Of a stretch of 39,967 nt of DNA, positions 6,552 to 29,629 are shown in pieces (positions within the stretch are counted from its first letter, which is position 1; each line of letters opens with the position of its first letter). The notes beneath the pieces were generated by a model, which made no database searches, was not told the DNA's origin, and saw only the letters and a list, made by a program, of their open reading frames with translations. This stretch comes from Patescibacteria group bacterium (GTDB taxonomy: Bacteria; Patescibacteriota; Patescibacteriia; UBA9570; JAHJKD01): contig JBDRCS010000057.1 in assembly GCA_043821615.1 (NCBI GenBank), forward strand, positions 1 through 39,967, given 5' to 3'. Position numbers and translations under genes: made by a program.

Positions 6552-6624
6552 TTCCCCAGACTGAAGTCTGCTCGCTTCCCCAGACTGAAGTCTGGGGGCA
6601 GAAAGAAAGACTAAAGTCTTTCTT
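6552..6624. repeat. Tandem palindromes with core AGACT-N2-AGTCT (19-nt perfect direct repeat x2 plus a third hairpin)
   Basis: TTCCCCAGACTGAAGTCTG occurs at 6552-6570 and 6576-6594 with a 5-nt spacer. The second copy extends to CCCCAGACT GA AGTCTGGGG. A third palindrome AAGAAAGACT AA AGTCTTTCTT lies at 6603-6624. All are directly upstream of the comM start (6538). Confidence 0.8.
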
Positions 6625-6712: not shown

Positions 6713-6738
6713 AAAAAAAACGTCCCACTGCTGGGACG
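6713..6738 (-). terminator. Rho-independent terminator after the RNHCP gene
   Basis: The minus strand reads CGTCCCA GCAG TGGGACG followed by TTTTTTTT, about 30 nt after the stop at 6771. Confidence 0.7.
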
Positions 6739-6770
6739 CCGAATCCTGATAGCTTCATAATAAACTATTA

Positions 6771-11187: not shown

Positions 11188-11205
11188 AATGTTTTGTTCT
11201 GGTCA

Positions 11206-11241
11206 GCAGACTTCAGACTCGGGAAGAGTCTACATGTCTGC
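11206..11241 (-). promoter_or_regulatory. Nested hairpin in the pnp 5' leader
   Basis: Outer stem GCAGAC/GTCTGC and inner stem AGACTC-GGGAA-GAGTCT, ending 19 nt upstream of the pnp ATG (11187). Confidence 0.45.
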
Positions 11242-12665: not shown

Positions 12666-12672
12666 TCTCTTT

Positions 12673-12715
12673 CCTCTCCCCCTGCCCCCCTCTCCCCTCC
12701 GGGAGAGGGGGAAAC
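12673..12715 (+). repeat. GC-rich hairpin repeat, copy 1 (REP-like)
   Basis: CCTCTCCCCCTGCCCCCCTCTCCCCTCCGGGAGAGGGGGAAAC. 38/43 identical to 37005-37047. Stem CCCCCTCTCCC/GGGAGAGGGGG. Confidence 0.8.
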
Positions 12716-12716
12716 C

Positions 12717-12745
12717 AAAAAAAGACCAAACAATAATGTTTGGTC
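12717..12745 (-). terminator. Rho-independent terminator after the 12770..13123 gene
   Basis: The minus strand reads GACCAAAC ATTATT GTTTGGTC TTTTTTT. Confidence 0.75.
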
Positions 12746-13182: not shown

Positions 13183-13188
13183 GTGTGT

Positions 13189-14109
13189 ATGGTCAATTTA
13201 AAAGATTTAAAAACTGAGTTTTTGGAATATTTGGAGATTGAGAGGAATCGGTCTCAGGCGACGATTAAGAACTATGATTTTTATCTGGAGCGTTTTTTGG
13301 AATGGTCGAAACTGACTGACCCGGCAAAAATTGATTTACCGGTTGTGAAAAATTACCGGCTTTACCTAAATAGAATGACTGATGAGAAAACTGGCGAGCC
13401 TCTAAAGAAGAATACGCAGAACTATCATGTGATCGCCCTAAGGAGCTTTTTAAAATACTTGGCCAAGCAAGACATTGAAACTTTGTCGGCCGATAAAATT
13501 GAATTGTCTAAACAACCTGACAGACAAGTGGAATTTTTGGAAGGAGCTGAGCTGGAGAAAATTTTAGAGGCTCCCCTGCAAATTAAAGGTCCGGAGATTA
13601 TTAAAAAAAGGGATAAGGCGATAATGGAATTATTATTTTCTACAGGATTGCGTGTATCAGAAATTGCCAAACTTCAAAAAGATGATATTAATTTAAAAAA
13701 AGAAGAATTTTCCGTAAGGGGAAAAGGCTCAAAAATTAGAGTGGTGTTTTTATCAGAGCAGGCGCGCTATTGGCTGGGTGAATATTTGAAGATGAAACAA
13801 ATGGATGTGTCGCCTTATATTTTTACAGCGCATGACAGAGCCCAAAAGGGCAGAGATGAAAAACCAATCACGCCACGCACCGTTGAACGCATCGTGGAAA
13901 AGTATGCCAAGGTAGCCGGGATCACAAAAAAAGTGACGCCCCATACTTTGCGCCACAGTTTTGCGACCGACCTTTTAGCATCCGGGGCGGACATCAGATC
14001 TGTCCAGGCCATGCTGGGGCATTCATCCATTACCACAACCCAAATATACACTCACATTACAGATAAACATCTGAAAGAGATTTACAAAAAATATCATAAT
14101 AAGAAATAA
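13189..14109 (+). CDS. Tyrosine recombinase, XerC/XerD family
   Basis: N-terminal SAM-like core-binding domain. C-terminal RVSEI ... HTLRHSFATDLLASGADIRSVQAMLGHSSITTTQIYTH (R..HxxR..Y catalytic set). Confidence 0.85.
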   Translation: MVNLKDLKTEFLEYLEIERNRSQATIKNYDFYLERFLEWSKLTDPAKIDLPVVKNYRLYLNRMTDEKTGEPLKKNTQNYHVIALRSFLKYLAKQDIETLSADKIELSKQPDRQVEFLEGAELEKILEAPLQIKGPEIIKKRDKAIMELLFSTGLRVSEIAKLQKDDINLKKEEFSVRGKGSKIRVVFLSEQARYWLGEYLKMKQMDVSPYIFTAHDRAQKGRDEKPITPRTVERIVEKYAKVAGITKKVTPHTLRHSFATDLLASGADIRSVQAMLGHSSITTTQIYTHITDKHLKEIYKKYHNKK

Positions 14110-18907: not shown

Positions 18908-18981
18908 GGCAGGGTAGCTCAGTTGGTTAGAGCGCGGGACTCATAAGCCCGAGGTCGAGAGTTCGAATCTCTCCCCTGTCA
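18908..18981 (+). tRNA. tRNA with CAT anticodon (elongator Met or Ile2)
   Basis: Acceptor GGCAGGG/CCCTGTC (one G:U). D arm GCTC/GAGC. Anticodon loop CTCATAA. T arm GAGAG-TTCGAAT-CTCTC. The paired 1:72 position argues against an initiator. A31:G39 is mismatched. Confidence 0.85.
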
Positions 18982-18982
18982 C

Positions 18983-19101: not shown

Positions 19102-19175
19102 GGTGGTAGTAGCTCAATTGGTAGAGCACTCGATTGTGGTTCGAGCGGTTGCCGGTTCAAGTCCGGTCTACCACC
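19102..19175 (+). tRNA. tRNA-His (anticodon GTG) with encoded G-1
   Basis: An extra 5' G pairs with discriminator C. Acceptor GTGGTAG/CTACCAC. Anticodon stem CTCGA/TCGAG with loop TTGTGGT. T arm GCCGG-TTCAAGT-CCGGT. Confidence 0.9.
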
Positions 19176-19186
19176 CAAAGTTAGAA

Positions 19187-19226: not shown

Positions 19227-19655
19227 ATGATTACAATAAGCCATGCTAAATTAAAAGATATTAAGGCTTGTATTAAAATTGATAAAAGCCTTAAAGAGAA
19301 AATTAATCGCCAGTTTCTTAAAGAAGCAATATTATCTAACAGAGTATTTATTGCCAAAGAAAAAAATGAAATAGCAGGATACTTAATATTTAATATTTTA
19401 TGGGGAGAGATTCCTTTTATTGAATTTATTAAAATTACTCCAGCTTATCAACGACAACTGATAGGAACTAACTTGATAAAAAAAATTGAAAATAAATTTA
19501 AAAAATTAGGTTTTAAATTTCTCTATAGTTCAACTTCGAGAAAAAATAAAAAATCAATAACTTTTCATAAAGCAACTGGTTTTAAAAAATGTGGCGATGT
19601 AGAATTAGATAAAGAAAAGGAAATATTTTTCAAGAAAAAAATAAATAAACAATGA
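19227..19655 (+). CDS. GNAT family N-acetyltransferase
   Basis: 142 aa. Motif-A-like YQRQLIGTNLIKKIENKFKKLGF. Overlaps the next gene by 4 nt (ATGA). Confidence 0.7.
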   Translation: MITISHAKLKDIKACIKIDKSLKEKINRQFLKEAILSNRVFIAKEKNEIAGYLIFNILWGEIPFIEFIKITPAYQRQLIGTNLIKKIENKFKKLGFKFLYSSTSRKNKKSITFHKATGFKKCGDVELDKEKEIFFKKKINKQ

Positions 19656-20035
19656 AAGTCCATCATTTAGCAATATCGATAAAAGATTTGGAAAAATCAG
19701 TCTCTTTTTATGCTAAATATTTTGATTTCAAGGATATCCAAAGATTTACCAAGACAGAATGGGAAGGAGAGGCGGCGATTCTTGATTTATATGGATTCAA
19801 ACTGGAAATTTTCCAATTTCACAATGCGATTGATAAAAAAGATGATTTATCAAATCTTGAAGTGATTGGCTTGAAACATATCAGCATTGAGGTTGATGAT
19901 GTTGAGAGTAAATATATAGAATTAAAGGAAAAGGGAATTGATATTGATAAACCTGAAAAAGGAACTACATGTGCCTGGTTTTGTTTTCTACGAGACCCAG
20001 ATGGCATTCCTATTGAATTATATGAATCTAAATAA
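19652..20035 (+). CDS. VOC/glyoxalase I family protein
   Basis: 127 aa. HLAISIKDLEKSVSFY ... LKHISIEVDD ... FLRDPDGIPIELYE, the paired beta-alpha-beta-beta-beta pattern. Confidence 0.75.
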   Translation: MKVHHLAISIKDLEKSVSFYAKYFDFKDIQRFTKTEWEGEAAILDLYGFKLEIFQFHNAIDKKDDLSNLEVIGLKHISIEVDDVESKYIELKEKGIDIDKPEKGTTCAWFCFLRDPDGIPIELYESK

Positions 20036-20058
20036 AATAATTAATAATTATTGAAAAT

Positions 20059-20532
20059 ATGGTAGATGTTGAAAAATATTTACAATCCCACGATATAAAA
20101 TATGCACCTCATAAACATCCTGCTGTTTTTACCTGCGATGAAGCAGAAAAGCATTGCGCAGATGTTCCAGGAATTCCTGGTAAGAATTTATTTTTGAAAA
20201 ATAAAGGGGGTAAGAGATATTTTTTAGTTGTCCTTCCTGCTTCTAAACGAGCTGATTTAAAAAAAATTGCTAAAATAGTTGGTGAGAGTAAAGTCAGCTT
20301 TGCTAATAGTGAAGCCTTGAAAGAAAAATTAGACCTAGAACCTGGCTCTGTTTCTCCTTTTGGATTATTAAATGATGTTCAGCATGAAGTGGAAGTATAT
20401 ATTGATAAAGATATATATGATGCGAATATAGTAAATTTTCATCCCAAACGTAATACTGCTTCTTTGGAATTAACAGGCGAGATGTTTCGTAAATATTTAA
20501 AAACAATAGAAAATAAAGTTCAAATAATCTAA
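20059..20532 (+). CDS. YbaK/ProX-type aminoacyl-tRNA trans-editing domain protein
   Basis: 157 aa. KNLFLKNKGGKRYFLVVL ... GSVSPFGL motif typical of the YbaK/prolyl-tRNA-synthetase-associated domain. Confidence 0.75.
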   Translation: MVDVEKYLQSHDIKYAPHKHPAVFTCDEAEKHCADVPGIPGKNLFLKNKGGKRYFLVVLPASKRADLKKIAKIVGESKVSFANSEALKEKLDLEPGSVSPFGLLNDVQHEVEVYIDKDIYDANIVNFHPKRNTASLELTGEMFRKYLKTIENKVQII

Positions 20533-20777
20533 TTAAGATTTATTTAAAACTGACAAATAAGGACAATTTGTCTGAAAATTATTTTGAACAAATACCAATT
20601 CTTGCCTAACCTCTTCCCAATTGATAGTTCTGAACACATCCACTATGCGACCCAATTAAAAGATCCCCTTTGTGGGAATTTTTTAATTGCCAAATGAAGA
20701 AGCCCACCGAGATTGCAGTCGACGAGACTTCTTCGGTGGGCTTGTGGGCCTGCTCGGATGAGCATGGCGTCCTCCTT

Positions 20778-21233
20778 TCAGTTGTGGTTCTGTGGCCAGA
20801 CTTGCTGGTGGAAGCTTATTCCCAGTCCGATGACAGCCAGCACGCAACCAGCGACCGTCATGCCAGTGACGATAGGCCAGCCTTGATCGCCGTGCCAGAA
20901 CACCTGAGCTGTGTCTGTCTGAGTTGCCCAGATGATGATCATGGCCATGTAGACACCAACGCCTGAAAGCAGAGCCTTGGTCTTGCGGGGCCACCAGCAG
21001 CGAGAGAAGACCAAACGTTCCTGGTCGCTACTTCGCTTGCTGGCAAAAACAGCGTCCATCCACATGGCTGCACCGATCAGGACCATGGCCAGGCAGCACA
21101 GGGCGGAACAGTTGTCCTGGTCATGAACGATGAGGCCGTTTGCCAGGAAGACAGAGAAGATGAAGAACAGAATACCGATGGACCAGTAAGGCAGAGCTGC
21201 CCACTGGGCTTCGATACTACGCTGTTGTTTCAC
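20778..21233 (-). CDS. GC-rich-island membrane protein (about 151 aa, four hydrophobic segments)
   Basis: GC-rich third codon positions. GGAG lies 6 nt upstream of GTG 21233 (the track start TTG 21245 overlaps this SD). Four TM-like runs. No family recognised. Confidence 0.6.
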   Translation of the reverse strand: MKQQRSIEAQWAALPYWSIGILFFIFSVFLANGLIVHDQDNCSALCCLAMVLIGAAMWMDAVFASKRSSDQERLVFSRCWWPRKTKALLSGVGVYMAMIIIWATQTDTAQVFWHGDQGWPIVTGMTVAGCVLAVIGLGISFHQQVWPQNHN

Positions 21234-21340
21234 GATGTACTCCAATTGTTGAAACGGGTTAATTTTTGAACCACGGCATTTTATATTATATTAATAAGGT
21301 AAAAAGTCAAGTATGGAAGGGTCCCCTTAGTGGGTATTTT

Positions 21341-21349
21341 TGTTATACT
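21341..21349 (+). promoter_or_regulatory. Extended -10 TGtTATACT, 6 nt before ATG 21356 (leaderless candidate)
   Basis: TATACT at 21344-21349 preceded by TGT. ATG at 21356. Confidence 0.45.
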
Positions 21350-21355
21350 TAATTT

Positions 21356-21775
21356 ATGGAAATTAAAAAAGTCCCGGAATGGGAAAATAAAGCTAAGGAA
21401 TATTTTAATTCAGGATATAATTGTTCTGAAAGTGTTTTTAAAACAATTTTAGAATACAAAGGAGAGAACACTAATGAAAATTTAAATATGGCTACTGGTT
21501 TTGGAGGAGGCATGGGTAGGACGGGCTATACTTGCGGAGTAGTAACCGGAGCTGTACTGGCTTTAAATTATTTTTATGGACGAAAAGGACCAGAGGAAGA
21601 TAAACTGGCTTGTTACGAAAAAGTAAATTTATTTATTGAAGAATATAATAAAAAATTCGGTGGGATAAATTGCACTAAATATGGATATGGGAAAAACTCC
21701 GAGCAAGAAGATTTTGATTGTGATGAATATGTAGGTTATGCTGTTAAAATTACCATTAATATTATTGAAAAATAA
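21356..21775 (+). CDS. C_GCAxxG_C_C family protein
   Basis: GYNCSESV ... GFGGGMGRTGYTCGVVTGA ... CTKY ... FDCDEY, the Cys pattern of the family. Confidence 0.8.
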   Translation: MEIKKVPEWENKAKEYFNSGYNCSESVFKTILEYKGENTNENLNMATGFGGGMGRTGYTCGVVTGAVLALNYFYGRKGPEEDKLACYEKVNLFIEEYNKKFGGINCTKYGYGKNSEQEDFDCDEYVGYAVKITINIIEK

Positions 21776-21793
21776 ATTCAATTTTTCTACAAT

Positions 21794-21821
21794 AAAAAAA
21801 TCCCTTAGCAGGGACTTTTTT
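21794..21821. terminator. Bidirectional terminator between convergent genes
   Basis: AAAAAAA TCCCT TAGC AGGGA CTTTTTT. Confidence 0.65.
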
Positions 21822-22425
21822 ATTTTTGAGATTTATATTCCTTACGCCACGAGCCTGGCTCTATTTCATCATAATGCTTTGATTGAAAAAATTCCTTGAA
21901 GGTTCTATCCCAATCCTCTTGACTCATGCCAGCATTAGATTCGGGATAATCTTCTGAACGCATAACTTCATGAATAACTGTGGCATTTTCTTGATTAGCA
22001 ATATCTTGGATAAAACGCAATAATCTCTGATAAATTTCTAAGCCAACACCTTTGAGATTTTCAGCTTGCTTTCCTTCACGGCGAGGCCCAGTGCGGCCAA
22101 TGCCTGTGCCCACATCAATTTCATTTTGAGCTGGTAAATAATCTAGCTCCATATAGGCCTGGGCCAATGGTTGATTTTCATGCCGCACATAAAATCTAAA
22201 TATTGTATGTTGGGGTTGTTTTTTTACGGTAGCAATAAATTCAATCTTCTCTCCATTATAATCAATGTTCTGCCGGGCAATTTCCTGATAATCAACGCCT
22301 GGTTCAAACTGTTCTTCCATGCCCTCTTGCCAATCCAAACCTTTCAAATCAAAAGTTTTTAATTCATTAATATTTTGATTCAGTTCTGGCGAAACTCTTT
22401 CTGGCATTTGTTTATTTTTATGCAT
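21820..22425 (-). CDS. Hypothetical protein (201 aa)
   Basis: Host-like composition. The segment GVGLEIYQRLLRFIQ faintly resembles an acetyltransferase motif A. No firm call. Confidence 0.5.
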   Translation of the reverse strand: MHKNKQMPERVSPELNQNINELKTFDLKGLDWQEGMEEQFEPGVDYQEIARQNIDYNGEKIEFIATVKKQPQHTIFRFYVRHENQPLAQAYMELDYLPAQNEIDVGTGIGRTGPRREGKQAENLKGVGLEIYQRLLRFIQDIANQENATVIHEVMRSEDYPESNAGMSQEDWDRTFKEFFQSKHYDEIEPGSWRKEYKSQK

Positions 22426-22683: not shown

Positions 22684-23931
22684 ATGACTGAAAAATTATT
22701 TCAACCCAGACCGGCCAACCAAGATGCTTCACGAAATAGAACTACTAATACAGAACAGGAAGCAACTGAGCAAGATATTGAAGCTTTAAGGCAATGTGTG
22801 GCAGAACTAAAAGAAACAGGGAATAAATTTGATAACGCTTTATGTCAATATCAAGAACTTTTACGTGCTCAAGAAAATATTGAGCTCACAATAGAACAAT
22901 TAGAACAGGCCGGGGCAAATGAACAAGAAGTTACTCGATTAAAAGCGAAAGCAACAAAATTGATGTGGGCTTCAATGAGATATCTCACTTCTGGAGCCAT
23001 GATAGGCACAGCTGCAGGTGCCACAACCTATACCTTTACAAAGGATCCTGGTTTGACTGCTTTAGTGGGAGCCGGCGGAGCTTTAGCCGGAGCAGTAATT
23101 GAAAACAAATTAAGAACGGCAGAAATAAAAGCAGATCGTTCTAAGCAATATTATAGAGGACATCCAGAGACTAAAGCTTTTATGGAAAAGAAAGACAGAG
23201 AAGCAGAAGCTCAAGCTAATGAAACCGAAAGATTAAATGAGGCTTATAAAAATATCCAAGCAAGGATAGCTGAGATTGAAACGGAGATAGATGATTTAGG
23301 AAGATCGGGATTTGCATCTTTAGAATTGACCCGAGAAGAGGAAATGCCACAAGCTGACAATAAAGAAGCAATCAAAGCAATAGCAGAAAAGCTTCAACAA
23401 CTTTCTATGGAATTTGATCAACTTTTAGTTGAATATTTCACTCTTACCAAAGTAGTAGAGGAGGCTGAACAAAATTTTCAAAATCAAAAACTATATCATG
23501 ATTTTAGAAATCTCCAAGTTACTGTAAATGTTTTAAGCAGAAAAGCTTTTGAATTGGCACGAAGATTCAACATGACTTTTGCAGTAGGTGGAATGCTTGG
23601 AATAGGGGCAGGCATGTTGGCTGCCATCAAAGGCTATGACCCAGTTTCAGCTGGAGTAGCGGGCGCTTCAGCAGGCGCTGCCTTTAATGAATTCTTTTTT
23701 GAGAGATGGGAAAGAAATATTGTTTATAATAATGTACCAAAACATACTCTTGATCACAGATACAGAACAGCAATGGATTTAGAGCTACAAAGATTTAAAG
23801 ATCCTCAATTGCAAATGGATAAAGAATTAATGGAACAAGCCAGAATTAATAGAGATAGCCTTCTAGAAGAACAAGCAAGATTAAATGATGAACTTGAGGA
23901 ATTTGTGAGAAGATATCCAATGAAAAAATAA
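22684..23931 (+). CDS. Coiled-coil protein with two glycine-zipper hydrophobic hairpins (internally duplicated)
   Basis: Two copies of [long heptad-like helix + Gly/Ala-rich hairpin]: SGAMIGTAAGATTYTFTKDPGLTALVGAGGALAGAVI and FAVGGMLGIGAGMLAAIKGYDPVSAGVAGASAGAAF. Confidence 0.65.
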   Translation: MTEKLFQPRPANQDASRNRTTNTEQEATEQDIEALRQCVAELKETGNKFDNALCQYQELLRAQENIELTIEQLEQAGANEQEVTRLKAKATKLMWASMRYLTSGAMIGTAAGATTYTFTKDPGLTALVGAGGALAGAVIENKLRTAEIKADRSKQYYRGHPETKAFMEKKDREAEAQANETERLNEAYKNIQARIAEIETEIDDLGRSGFASLELTREEEMPQADNKEAIKAIAEKLQQLSMEFDQLLVEYFTLTKVVEEAEQNFQNQKLYHDFRNLQVTVNVLSRKAFELARRFNMTFAVGGMLGIGAGMLAAIKGYDPVSAGVAGASAGAAFNEFFFERWERNIVYNNVPKHTLDHRYRTAMDLELQRFKDPQLQMDKELMEQARINRDSLLEEQARLNDELEEFVRRYPMKK

Positions 23932-28352: not shown

Positions 28353-28504
28353 CTATATGATAGCGATAACCGCGGAGCACCGCATCCGCGGTTATCCCCG
28401 TAGTTTATTTAACTACTTAAAAAGTATACCATTTTTTACTCAATTAAAAAACCGGGGCTCACTCACGTGGGATGCGAATGAGGTACCCGGTCTTGACGCC
28501 TCCT

Positions 28505-29326
28505 TCAGGGCGTCGGGTTGGGGTTGAGAGGGTACATGATGGAGTGCAGTTCTTCCATCATGATCGTGAACTCGCTCTTGTCCTGGCCTGCCGAGCTCTC
28601 CAGGTAGACTCCATCCTGCACCAGATAGTTCATCTTCTGGAGTTGGAGGCGGAAGTTGCGGGCGTAGAGTCGAATCTCGCGGTGCTGGCCGGAATCGGCA
28701 CAAGCGGCGGCGAGCTCGACCTCGTGCTCCAGTTCGAGCAGGAGCAGGATGGCCGAGTCCACTGGCGAGCCAGAGCTGGGAAGCAGGTTCCAGCTCTCAT
28801 CCAGCGTCTCGAGTTTGTCCTTGCTCAGAACGGGAAGGGCCTTGTCCAGGGCTGTGCGGACGACTCTTGCAGAGACCTCGTCCAGGGTCTGGCGATCCTC
28901 CAAGAGCTGCTGGGGGGTCTGGCGCTCGCTGATGCGGAGCTCGACCTCGGTGTCGAGGTAGGCCATAGCCACGTAGTAGCCAGCGAAGTTGATGGTGAGG
29001 CTGGTGATCAGCAGGAGCCAGATCATGGGGTGGGCCAGACGCTGGCGCGGCTGTTGGCGCTTGGGCGGAGGAGGCTGCATGGCCGGACGAACCGGAGGGG
29101 GGACGGCCAGAGGCGGAGTCGGCTCTTCGTCCTCGTCAGGTAGAGCCTCGACCACGGCTTCCACGGGAGTCGAGTCTTCACCAGTGATGCCCCGATAGGT
29201 GTGGGACTCACCAGAGTAGCCCGAAGCCGGGAGCGGATTGATTTCGTCGTAGGTAGCCTCCAGCTCATCCGGCAGTTTGCCCAGATCGTGCGGGAGACTG
29301 CTGGGATCCCTTGTTTCATTAGTCAT
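28505..29326 (-). CDS. GC-rich-island protein, 273 aa, Pro-rich N-terminus + single TM + helical C-domain
   Basis: Start MTNETRD at ATG 29326 with GAGGAG 7 nt upstream. TM HPMIWLLLITSLTINFAGYYVAMAYL. Strongly G/C-ending codons. No family recognised. Confidence 0.6.
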   Translation of the reverse strand: MTNETRDPSSLPHDLGKLPDELEATYDEINPLPASGYSGESHTYRGITGEDSTPVEAVVEALPDEDEEPTPPLAVPPPVRPAMQPPPPKRQQPRQRLAHPMIWLLLITSLTINFAGYYVAMAYLDTEVELRISERQTPQQLLEDRQTLDEVSARVVRTALDKALPVLSKDKLETLDESWNLLPSSGSPVDSAILLLLELEHEVELAAACADSGQHREIRLYARNFRLQLQKMNYLVQDGVYLESSAGQDKSEFTIMMEELHSIMYPLNPNPTP

Positions 29327-29354
29327 GGGTTTTCTCCTCGATTCTGAGATCCGC

Positions 29355-29528
29355 TCACTCGCGGCTCCAGAAGGGGTAGCGGGTGAGAAGCCAGAAGACC
29401 ACGGCCACACCAGCGAGGGTGGGCCAGATTCCGAAGAAGTGATAGACAGCCACCGAAGCGAAGGCGGCGAGAATGCTGATGCCGACCCAGTTGCCGGCCA
29501 TCTGCCAATTAAATACGATTCTTTTCAT
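29355..29528 (-). CDS. GC-rich-island small membrane protein (57 aa, two hydrophobic helices)
   Basis: My translation is MKRIVFNWQMAGNWVGISILAAFASVAVYHFFGIWPTLAGVAVVFWLLTRYPFWSRE. GGAGG lies 6 nt upstream of the ATG. The stop is 28 nt before the next gene. Too short for the ORF track. Confidence 0.45.
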   Translation of the reverse strand: MKRIVFNWQMAGNWVGISILAAFASVAVYHFFGIWPTLAGVAVVFWLLTRYPFWSRE

Positions 29529-29629
29529 CCCCGGCCTCCGTTTAGGGGCTTTGTTGTTTAATGTGCAATCCCGTGAAACAAATCACAGGACCCTCCTTGA
29601 TTGCAGAATATTAATGAAAATGAGCGGTT

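Follow-up and report, generated by a model that had tools for sequence, protein, structure and literature searches.

The stretch of DNA analyzed here, which we call the window, comprises 39,967 nucleotides from a Patescibacteria group bacterium (contig JBDRCS010000057.1 of assembly GCA_043821615.1). Flanked by the 3′ end of a ybaK-like deacylase gene on one side and by the 5′ end of a C_GCAxxG gene on the other, a GC-rich island in this window codes on the minus strand for a 151-residue membrane protein, P0001. A reading of the sequence alone (the original prediction) had described this island as an insertion bracketed by an imperfect direct repeat of about 20 nucleotides. In the following we describe the gene and its signals, its relatives in other genomes, a conserved module at its 3′ end, and the two repeat copies at its borders.

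A Single-Gene Unit of Deviant Composition

The G+C content (GC) is 0.561 over positions 20692–21233, compared to 0.314 on one side (20059–20663), 0.306 on the other (21342–21900), and 0.398 over the whole window. Two 60-nucleotide lines that had been singled out as GC-rich contain, on recounting, exactly the G+C that had been claimed (38/60 at 20821–20880 and 32/60 at 21001–21060). A gene caller predicts the same 151-residue product that the original prediction had placed on the minus strand. The Shine-Dalgarno motif is likewise found in the sequence at the stated distance from the GTG start (Table 1). The preference of this gene for codons ending in G or C is also borne out: GC at third codon positions (GC3) is 0.68, as against 0.15–0.44 in 15 host genes, 0.18 in the ybaK-like gene, and 0.20 in the C_GCAxxG gene. 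The only open reading frames (ORFs) within the 638 bp between the repeats are P0001 and a mini-ORF downstream of it.

The extent of the unit can be read from L005, the closest related locus. Homology between the two loci is limited to the segment from about 21312, at the −35 box, through about 20692, at the tail of the terminator-like hairpin. From these limits we conclude that the unit is a full promoter-to-terminator cassette of about 630–640 bp (~20690–21321). Upstream of the gene, the window and L005 share the −35 box CTTGACTTTT, a −10 region, a start of the 5′ untranslated region (UTR) of the form AAAT(G/A)CCGT(G/T)GTTCAA, and then GGAGTACA-N-CGTG. A GGAG-N6–8-GTG start was found at six of the seven family loci checked, L012 being the exception. 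If these signals act as their sequences suggest, the unit would consist, in this order, of a sigma-70-like promoter, a UTR of ~50 nt, GGAG-N6-GTG, a 151-residue four-helix inner-membrane protein, and the 3′ module.

Table 1. Positions of the Island Features and of the Flanking Repeat Copies in the Window
Feature	Position	Strand	Details
Repeat copy 1, core TCCCCTTTGTGGGAATTTTT (20664–20683)	20653..20689		palindrome CAATTAAAAGATCCCC / GGGAATTTTTTAATTG
3′ hairpin and tail	20692..20743	−	stem AAGCCCACCGA / TCGGTGGGCTT (20743–20733 / 20710–20700), tail CTTCTTCATTT (20702–20692)
Candidate mini-ORF with Shine-Dalgarno motif	20745..20777	−	AAGGAGG (20777–20771), 5 nt, ATG CTC ATC CGA GCA GGC CCA = M-L-I-R-A-G-P (20765–20745)
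P0001 gene, 151 aa	20778..21233	−	GTG start, TGA stop; ORF and gene caller
Shine-Dalgarno GGAG	21240..21243	−	6 nt ahead of GTG; from sequence
5′ UTR (predicted)	about 50 nt	−	between promoter and GTG start
Conserved 5′ UTR start	21266..21281	−	AAATGCCGTGGTTCAA (L005: AAATACCGTTGTTCAA); L005 alignment
Promoter-like TTGACT-16-TAATAT, sigma-70-like	21283..21310	−	consensus scan; −35 box CTTGACTTTT also in L005
Repeat copy 2, core TCCCCTTAGTGGGTATTTTT (21322–21341)	21309..21350	+	hairpin via G·U pairs

RNA genes stand out as GC-rich in AT-rich genomes, and the 3′ end of the island is strongly structured. On these grounds the island could be taken for a structured noncoding RNA that contains no protein gene. 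We consider this very improbable. Rfam gives nothing at the gathering threshold or at E ≤ 1, and the ORF is intact over its 151 codons, with relatives that align in register at 27–47% amino-acid identity. The nucleotide identity between the window and L005 is 0.62/0.72/0.40 at the three codon positions. A related low-depth contig from sequencing run X1 differs from the window by 16% (24/147 bases), and 12 of its 16 listed differences fall on third codon positions. The in-register relatives, together with the third-position bias in this related contig, show that the P0001 ORF is coding. The confident model of a helical bundle also speaks against an RNA gene.

This model, obtained with AlphaFold2 (predicted local distance difference test score 85.7), is a generic four-helix membrane bundle. 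The four hydrophobic segments that had been noted in the protein are present. By the positive-inside rule, the N and the C terminus are both predicted to lie inside. No match to P0001 was found in Pfam, NCBIfam, PHROGs, or PADLOC, and none by sequence in the PDB. Comparison of the fold with the PDB and BFVD gave nothing significant; the best similarities, at a template modeling score of about 0.5 and E > 0.1, are to V-ATPase c subunits. A tblastn search of phage and plasmid collections gave no match either, and no phage homolog was found in PHROGs, BFVD, or INPHARED.

The sharp change in composition would also be expected from an assembly chimera, that is, from a GC-rich fragment of another organism joined to an AT-rich contig. 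To this point we can bring contigs that were aligned to positions 19300–22400 and that come from eight DNA runs on groundwater and biofilm, done in five studies between 2016 and 2025. The contigs from X1 and X2 span the full 3.1 kb with one difference. Others cross one or both junctions with 0–1 differences (X3, 20273–21861; X6, 20469–21375; X5, 20676–21714; X4 and X7 in part), so that seven independent runs show the island and its junctions. The exact P0001 protein and both junctions were also recovered from an ENA assembly and from Logan assemblies made independently for other runs, and the read depth is even over both junctions. Since independent assemblies from five or more studies carry both borders, we can reject the chimera, for which the composition change is the only argument and whose probability is negligible. 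No read or contig of the eight runs contains a joint that bypasses the island. The island is fixed in the sampled population.

A Rare Family of GC-Rich Genes in AT-Rich Contigs

Relatives of P0001 were searched for with phmmer among 1.84 billion cluster representatives and with a profile search of 5.8 billion proteins. The first search returned five real relatives with 29–47% identity, and the second added one more. All seven members of the family, one of which belongs to a Candidatus Kerfeldbacteria genome, reside in AT-rich contigs. In five of the six relatives, the GC of the gene clearly exceeds that of the surrounding DNA, with values of 0.59 at L008/L009 (rest of contig 0.32), 0.63 at L010 (0.45), 0.61 at L013 (0.50), 0.63 at L011 (0.54, with flanks of 0.38–0.45), and 0.52 at L012 (0.41). 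The exception is L005, with a gene GC of 0.45 next to 0.46–0.47 for the rest. Searches of proteins, phages, and plasmids turned up no family member on a phage or plasmid and none in any genome of high GC, and no donor was found among about 15 billion proteins. Of the neighboring genes that were compared, none is common to any two of the family loci.

The window contains a second GC-rich island at 28447–29560 (island 2), and a comparison of codon usage had been proposed as a test for a common donor. Relative synonymous codon usage (RSCU) correlates between the P0001 island (island 1) and island 2 with r = 0.59, and between island 1 and the host with r = −0.07. The GC-rich genes of L010, L011, and L013 join the two islands in a group with mutual r values of 0.5–0.76. 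Correlations are weaker for the L008 and L012 genes (0.28–0.55), and the L005 gene hardly correlates. Compared with the host genes of the window, the islands and relatives give values from −0.4 to +0.07. From the rarity and patchiness of the family, the lack of synteny, and this shared foreign codon dialect, we infer that its members were acquired from a common gene pool.

Island 2 has a GC of 0.61 and comprises two minus-strand genes with a GC3 of 0.76–0.77, each preceded by GGAGG. The gene at 29528..29355 codes for a two-helix membrane protein of 57 residues. The gene at 29326..28505 codes for a protein of 273 residues that has a single membrane helix and, in its N-terminal part, many Pro and acidic residues. 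The TGA stop codon is directly followed by AGGAGG and then by a CCGGG...CCCGG hairpin with a T6 run. No family match was found for these genes, no match to the island 2 protein turned up in a scan of viral contigs, and no repeat flanks this island. Additional sharply bounded GC-rich islets occur on the contigs of P0001 relatives (L010, 10700–11250; L013, 2747–3000; L005, 1400–2050). The ORFan genes of these islets are mutually unrelated and have a similar codon dialect.

The distribution of the family also invites a reading without any transfer: P0001 may be a native, vertically inherited gene whose GC-rich coding is kept by selection, for example on mRNA stability or expression, and the hairpins around it may be independent terminators. 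Such a history would account for the confinement of all seven members to AT-rich contigs, for a GC-richness that recurs despite the ancient divergence indicated by 27–47% identity to P0001, for the constraint on promoter, UTR, and 3′ hairpin, and for the fixation of the island in all eight runs. It accords poorly with a family that is extremely rare and patchy and whose compared neighbors are never shared. The closest relatives of the ybaK-like protein (81% and 73% identity) are encoded next to other neighbors, with no family gene beside ybaK. In addition, unrelated GC-rich islets with the same codon dialect are found in the window and on other contigs, which points to a shared source. We therefore regard vertical inheritance as improbable and consider horizontal acquisition to be the better account of the island.

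A Conserved 3′ Module with a Candidate Mini-ORF

The long hairpin that had been described downstream of P0001 is confirmed, with arms (20700–20710 and 20733–20743) that are complementary at 11 of 11 positions. It may be the island gene's own terminator or attenuator. The predicted fold of the 3′ end has a free energy (dG) of −39.7 kcal/mol (z = −3.9), and in this fold the CU-rich tail pairs with the upstream Shine-Dalgarno motif too. The stem arms and the tail CTTCTTC are identical in the window and in L005, two loci whose proteins are 47% identical. Both loci continue from the stop codon in the order TGA-AAGGAGGA-N5-ATG and, later, the hairpin arms AAGCCCACCGA and TCGGTGGGCTT. Identity between the two is 75% over the 3′ module (85% over its first 52 nt), 58% over the ORF, and 40% at third codon positions.

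A second subfamily, represented by L010 (8470–8552) and L013 (2416–2498), has a different arrangement, in which TAGGAGGA and a long hairpin of about −47 kcal/mol, but no mini-ORF, come after the stop codon. Here the 3′ hairpin is about 80% identical over the aligned core, with 3 of 25 pairs compensatory, compared to 55% for the protein and 54% for third positions. Since the noncoding ends are better conserved than the ORF in both subfamilies, we conclude that they are under selection. When the arms of the P0001 hairpin were used as a search pattern against viral contigs and JGI metagenome contigs, the only matches were unrelated generic terminators with the same stem.

The mini-ORF of the first subfamily (Table 1) ends its conserved part with a Pro codon that lies 1 nt ahead of the 5′ arm of the hairpin. 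At L005 the corresponding sequence is ATG CGT GTC CGA GCA GGA CCA (MRVRAGP). A third version comes from loose contig ends of a second module locus outside the window and reads ATG CTT CAC ATC AGA GCT GGC CCC A (M-L-H-I-R-A-G-P), with an extra codon in frame. The codons for R-A-G-P differ at four places among the three loci, and all four changes are synonymous (CGA>AGA, GCA>GCT, GGC>GGA, CCA>CCC). Beyond the Pro codon nothing is shared. Read mechanically, the ORFs continue to 40 residues in the window (to 20643) and to 64 residues in L005, and at the second locus one extra base after Pro abolishes the frame. For the window, folding predicts a small hairpin that would hide the AUG; at the other two loci its pairing decays, with no compensating changes. 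For this reason coding constraint explains the pattern better than RNA structure. Among 235 kb of fetched loci, a short ORF with a preceding Shine-Dalgarno motif and the sequence R-A-(G/P)-P was found only at these loci and in one unrelated phage match.

The second module locus appears on contigs from X1 (6647 nt), X2 (5065 nt), X3 (3299 nt), X5, and X7, which match positions 20692–20745 of the window with six differences. Depth at the second locus and at the window contig is 16.2/17.3, 10.4/10.3, 4.7/4.2, and 4.7/4.5 in four runs, and 58/26 in X2. Because the two depths are equal in four of the five runs, the second copy of the module is probably part of the same genome. The gene that precedes it cannot be aligned to P0001 at 80% or more. 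Downstream of the module, L005 contains a gene for a 216-residue protein with a signal-peptide-like N terminus. In the window only repeat copy 1 and the convergent ybaK-like gene follow.

Both the SecM arrest sequence and Bacillus subtilis YwcI have R-A-G-P as their core, a motif that proteomes avoid (PMC12992588, PMC10987492). We hypothesize that the mini-ORF stalls ribosomes as well. Ribosomes that finish P0001 would re-initiate 12 nt downstream on the mini-ORF and would pause with Gly6 in the P site and Pro7 in the A site. With a footprint that reaches roughly 15 nt further downstream, a ribosome in this position would overlie most of the hairpin's 5′ arm. In this way translation could modulate termination and read-through or the stability of the 3′ end, and it would do so only while the message is being translated.

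The Flanking Repeats

The direct repeat of the original prediction is present at the places indicated, and its identity has to be corrected from 19/21 to 18/20 (18/21 with one more position; 21/25 when extended to the left). Copy 1 is composed of an A-run, a stem, a loop, and a T-run, and forms a complete palindrome of 16+16 nt that folds on both strands (dG = −14.5 kcal/mol and z = −5.0 on the plus strand; −14.8 kcal/mol and z = −3.7 on the minus strand). It has the form of a bidirectional intrinsic terminator, which would serve the ybaK-like gene on the plus strand and the island gene on the minus strand. Copy 2 lies 11 nt upstream of the −35 box of the island and 14 nt ahead of the ATG of the C_GCAxxG gene. 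It folds on the plus strand only (−12.1 kcal/mol, z = −1.6; minus strand −6.7 kcal/mol, z = −0.5), and no plus-strand gene runs into it. The resemblance of the copies to terminators, also part of the original prediction, thus holds on both strands for copy 1 and weakly, on the plus strand, for copy 2. The outer arms of the two copies differ, with CAATTA..TAATTG in copy 1 and AAGTAT/ATACTT in copy 2. The right outer arm of copy 1 lies on the side of the presumed element.

The similarity between the copies is not random. With three mismatches allowed, the repeat pattern occurs at two sites only in 40 kb, with 0.04 expected. In 300 shuffles of the border zones no pair reached 18/20, the maximum being 16. 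In comparisons of real intergenic regions 2 of 342 reach 18, and the island pair is one of these two. At the same time, terminators of the class CCC-loop-GGG-T-run are common in the window, with about 7 sites compared to about 1 expected, and a hairpin of similar sequence directly follows the C_GCAxxG gene.

Further motifs were seen in passing. At 21361–21385 (ATGGAAATTAAAAAAGTCCCGGAATGGGAAAAT), within the first codons of the C_GCAxxG gene, the flanking hairpin motif has a third relative, weaker than the two copies, with 81% complementarity to copy 1 across 27 nt. A palindromic repeat, CCCCAGACTGAAGTCTG, occurs in two inverted copies at 6554–6597 and has an 18/20 relative at ~11200–11230, in the short region ahead of the PNPase gene. 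The motif GGGGACGGGGGGAGAGGAA (6730–6750), which is rich in G, recurs with 17/20 identity in another intergenic region (12670–12720).

In the model of the original prediction, the cassette would have landed in the intergenic terminator that separates the ybaK-like gene from the C_GCAxxG gene, leaving the repeat of 20–25 nt as a target duplication or an attL/attR pair. Several observations are consistent with this proposal. The 18/20 identity ranks at the top of the 342 intergenic comparisons and is unmatched by shuffles, and the copies lie 8–11 nt beyond the limits of L005 homology on either side of the unit. Copy 2 is a plus-strand terminator at a place where no plus-strand gene ends, as a displaced duplicate would be, and the window contains a gene for an Xer-type tyrosine recombinase (13183–14109). 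We nevertheless consider such an origin possible at best and on the whole unlikely. The outer arms of each copy are complementary among themselves, so that neither copy looks like a hybrid of chromosome and element. Since hybrid sites should not be internally complementary in both copies, this feature disfavors an origin from a staggered cut or from att recombination. Furthermore, at least 20 nt far exceeds the duplications that transposons usually leave, and two core positions are not the same in both copies. Neither a recombinase nor a transposase nor terminal inverted repeats are present in the unit, and the recombinase elsewhere in the window scores as a generic XerC/D/A protein, under the cut-off for integron integrases. 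Cores of attC sites are absent from the borders, and no comparable repeat was found at the six related loci or at island 2. Finally, the motif belongs to a class that is common in the window, with a third similar hairpin after the C_GCAxxG gene. In sum, the repeat is nonrandom and the duplication or att reading is unproven and somewhat disfavored. We think that the copies are two related terminator-type hairpins of the kind usual for this genome.

Specific mobile elements were considered individually. A transposon was rejected for want of a transposase; moreover, a comparison by eye of the two ends of the element, TAATTGCC... and ...GGAAGGG, shows no inverted relationship between them. As to an integron cassette, no attC cores (R″ RYYYAAC, R′ GTTRRRY) are present at the borders; the only matches lie at ~20604–20610, outside the repeats. 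IntI was dismissed because the sole tyrosine recombinase of the window (13183–14109) reaches 135 bits compared to the 265-bit cut-off of TIGR02249, and XerC, XerD, and XerA fit it better. Integration by att recombination is disfavored by the missing recombinase in the unit and by the internally complementary rather than hybrid outer arms. A dif site was also rejected, the borders being unlike dif.

An empty site was also looked for. A search of genome contigs with the ybaK-like protein gave relatives of 31–38% identity, none of which combines ybaK-like and C_GCAxxG genes as neighbors. Look-ups of the exact flanking proteins led only to island-bearing contigs, all with the same 824-nt spacing. 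The comparison proposed with the original prediction thus yielded no site without the island among relatives, look-ups, or the eight runs.

Genomic Setting

The neighborhood of the island is cellular and includes the ybaK-like deacylase, C_GCAxxG, GNAT, and glyoxalase genes as well as tRNA genes. The named relatives of the ybaK-like protein are mostly from the Candidate Phyla Radiation (CPR), and on this basis the host looks like a groundwater bacterium of the CPR/Patescibacteria. The accessory genes at 19227–21800 (GNAT, glyoxalase, ybaK-like, C_GCAxxG) have a GC3 of 0.15–0.25, compared to 0.36–0.44 for the rest of the window, and are directly preceded by tRNA-Met (18908–18982) and tRNA-His (19103–19176). 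This AT-rich accessory stretch may itself be a variable region. A tRNA-derived direct repeat that could serve as its att site was looked for and not found. The ORFs beside the C_GCAxxG gene, at 21820–22425 (201 residues) and 22684–23931 (415 residues), have no family assignment. The longer one gives sub-threshold hints of Gly-zipper and TauE similarity, and its Ala/Gly-rich stretches appear hydrophobic by eye. Metatranscriptomes of the same study contained tRNA fragments, one 234-nt contig (run X17), and almost nothing else of the organism. This contig maps to the 415-residue gene and is the sole sign of expression in the RNA runs.

Interpretation of the Island

The explanation that we favor, with moderate rather than high confidence, is that the island is a self-contained, monocistronic, GC-rich cassette, moron-like and horizontally acquired, with a translation-linked 3′ module, and that the flanking repeats are not an insertion scar. 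In this view, the genome of the host, or of recent ancestors, would have received the cassette horizontally from a gene pool of higher GC that CPR-like bacteria share. The most plausible route of insertion would be illegitimate or short-homology-assisted recombination beside an existing terminator.

A number of points weigh against this explanation. Neither a donor lineage nor an empty site was found, and the argument for transfer is one of composition and patchy distribution. All known hosts of the family are AT-rich, and the repeated occurrence of GC-rich members could instead be due to selection that acts on the gene. A statistically unusual pair of repeats closely brackets the unit defined by homology, as an insertion-linked duplication would. 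The promoter and the terminator are identified by consensus matches plus conservation, and the tail of the hairpin, CUUCUUCAUUU, falls short of a clean U-run. The mini-ORF is represented by three sequences, one of which comes from 30-nt loose ends only, and it offers just 3–4 residues ahead of the RAGP motif. The residues before RAGP or RAPP matter for arrest, and most natural sequences of this type that were tested in Escherichia coli and B. subtilis do not stall (PMC10987492).

As a compositional islet, the island is ordinary, namely one more horizontally acquired ORFan gene cassette. A broader interpretation would be that CPR/Patescibacteria share a pool of site-hopping, GC-rich membrane-protein cassettes, and that one subfamily of these carries a translationally coupled RAGP arrest mini-ORF that masks a terminator, with at least two copies of the module in this genome. 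We offer this broader scheme as speculation and would judge it rather doubtful at present. The recurrence of a GC-rich family in AT-rich, CPR-like genomes with no donor suggests either an unsampled mobile pool or selection for GC-rich coding. The mini-ORF has the look of an RAGP arrest ORF, which would be the shortest seen to date, and it is set against a terminator. If it truly stalls ribosomes, it would provide a minimal system for RAGP-type arrest without a tunnel-spanning peptide and, to our knowledge, the first such element in CPR.

Comparison with Known Systems

Integron cassettes (attC) and Xer/dif modules resemble the island in that a single-gene unit is bracketed by short, imperfectly palindromic sites. 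Unlike these, the island has what appears to be its own promoter, lacks attC R′/R″ cores, an integron integrase, and any resemblance to dif, and is flanked by sites with the A-run/stem/T-run architecture of terminators.

The similarity to phage morons is closer. A moron is an added gene with its own promoter and terminator and with deviant GC (PMC3594210). Like HK97 gene 15 and other examples (PMC3594210), P0001 is a single added gene of deviant GC, with its own putative promoter and terminator, between two unrelated genes, and morons too often encode a small membrane protein. In contrast to phage morons, the island has cellular neighbors with no prophage, and its host is CPR-like. The island would thus work like a moron. 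In view of the cellular context and the lack of a match in PHROGs, BFVD, or phage genomes, we do not classify it as one.

Horizontal gene transfer and genomic islands are reported to be common in aquifer Patescibacteria, with transfers mostly between Patescibacteria (PMC12455944). The island shares with the islets of these organisms that compositionally deviant DNA resides in a streamlined groundwater genome. It differs in being a single 0.64-kb presumptive transcription unit of an ORFan family with conserved noncoding ends, and in that GC-rich islets of this family recur in several genomes, where they occupy sites unrelated to one another.

The mini-ORF invites comparison with the RAGP/RAPP peptides SecM, ApdA, ApdP, and YwcI (PMC10951299, PMC10951233, PMC10987492, PMC12992588). 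As in these peptides, R-A-G-P would leave the ribosome with Gly in the P site and Pro in the A site, the codons of the motif change only synonymously, the frame after Pro is free, and an RNA hairpin lies directly downstream. In contrast to the known peptides, the motif of the mini-ORF occupies residues 4–7, with no tunnel-spanning N-terminal region and no signal for export or membrane insertion through which force could be sensed. Also, the mini-ORF is located downstream of a gene and against a terminator instead of upstream of secA, secDF, or yidC. Leader-peptide attenuation, as in the trp, tnaC, and erm/cat systems, similarly relies on a short ORF whose paused ribosome decides over a nearby terminator hairpin, as the mini-ORF would. 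Unlike a leader peptide, the mini-ORF lies 3′ of a gene or between cistrons, and in the window no gene follows it. Furthermore, no alternative antiterminator hairpin was found; in place of such a structure, the ribosome itself would mask the terminator arm.

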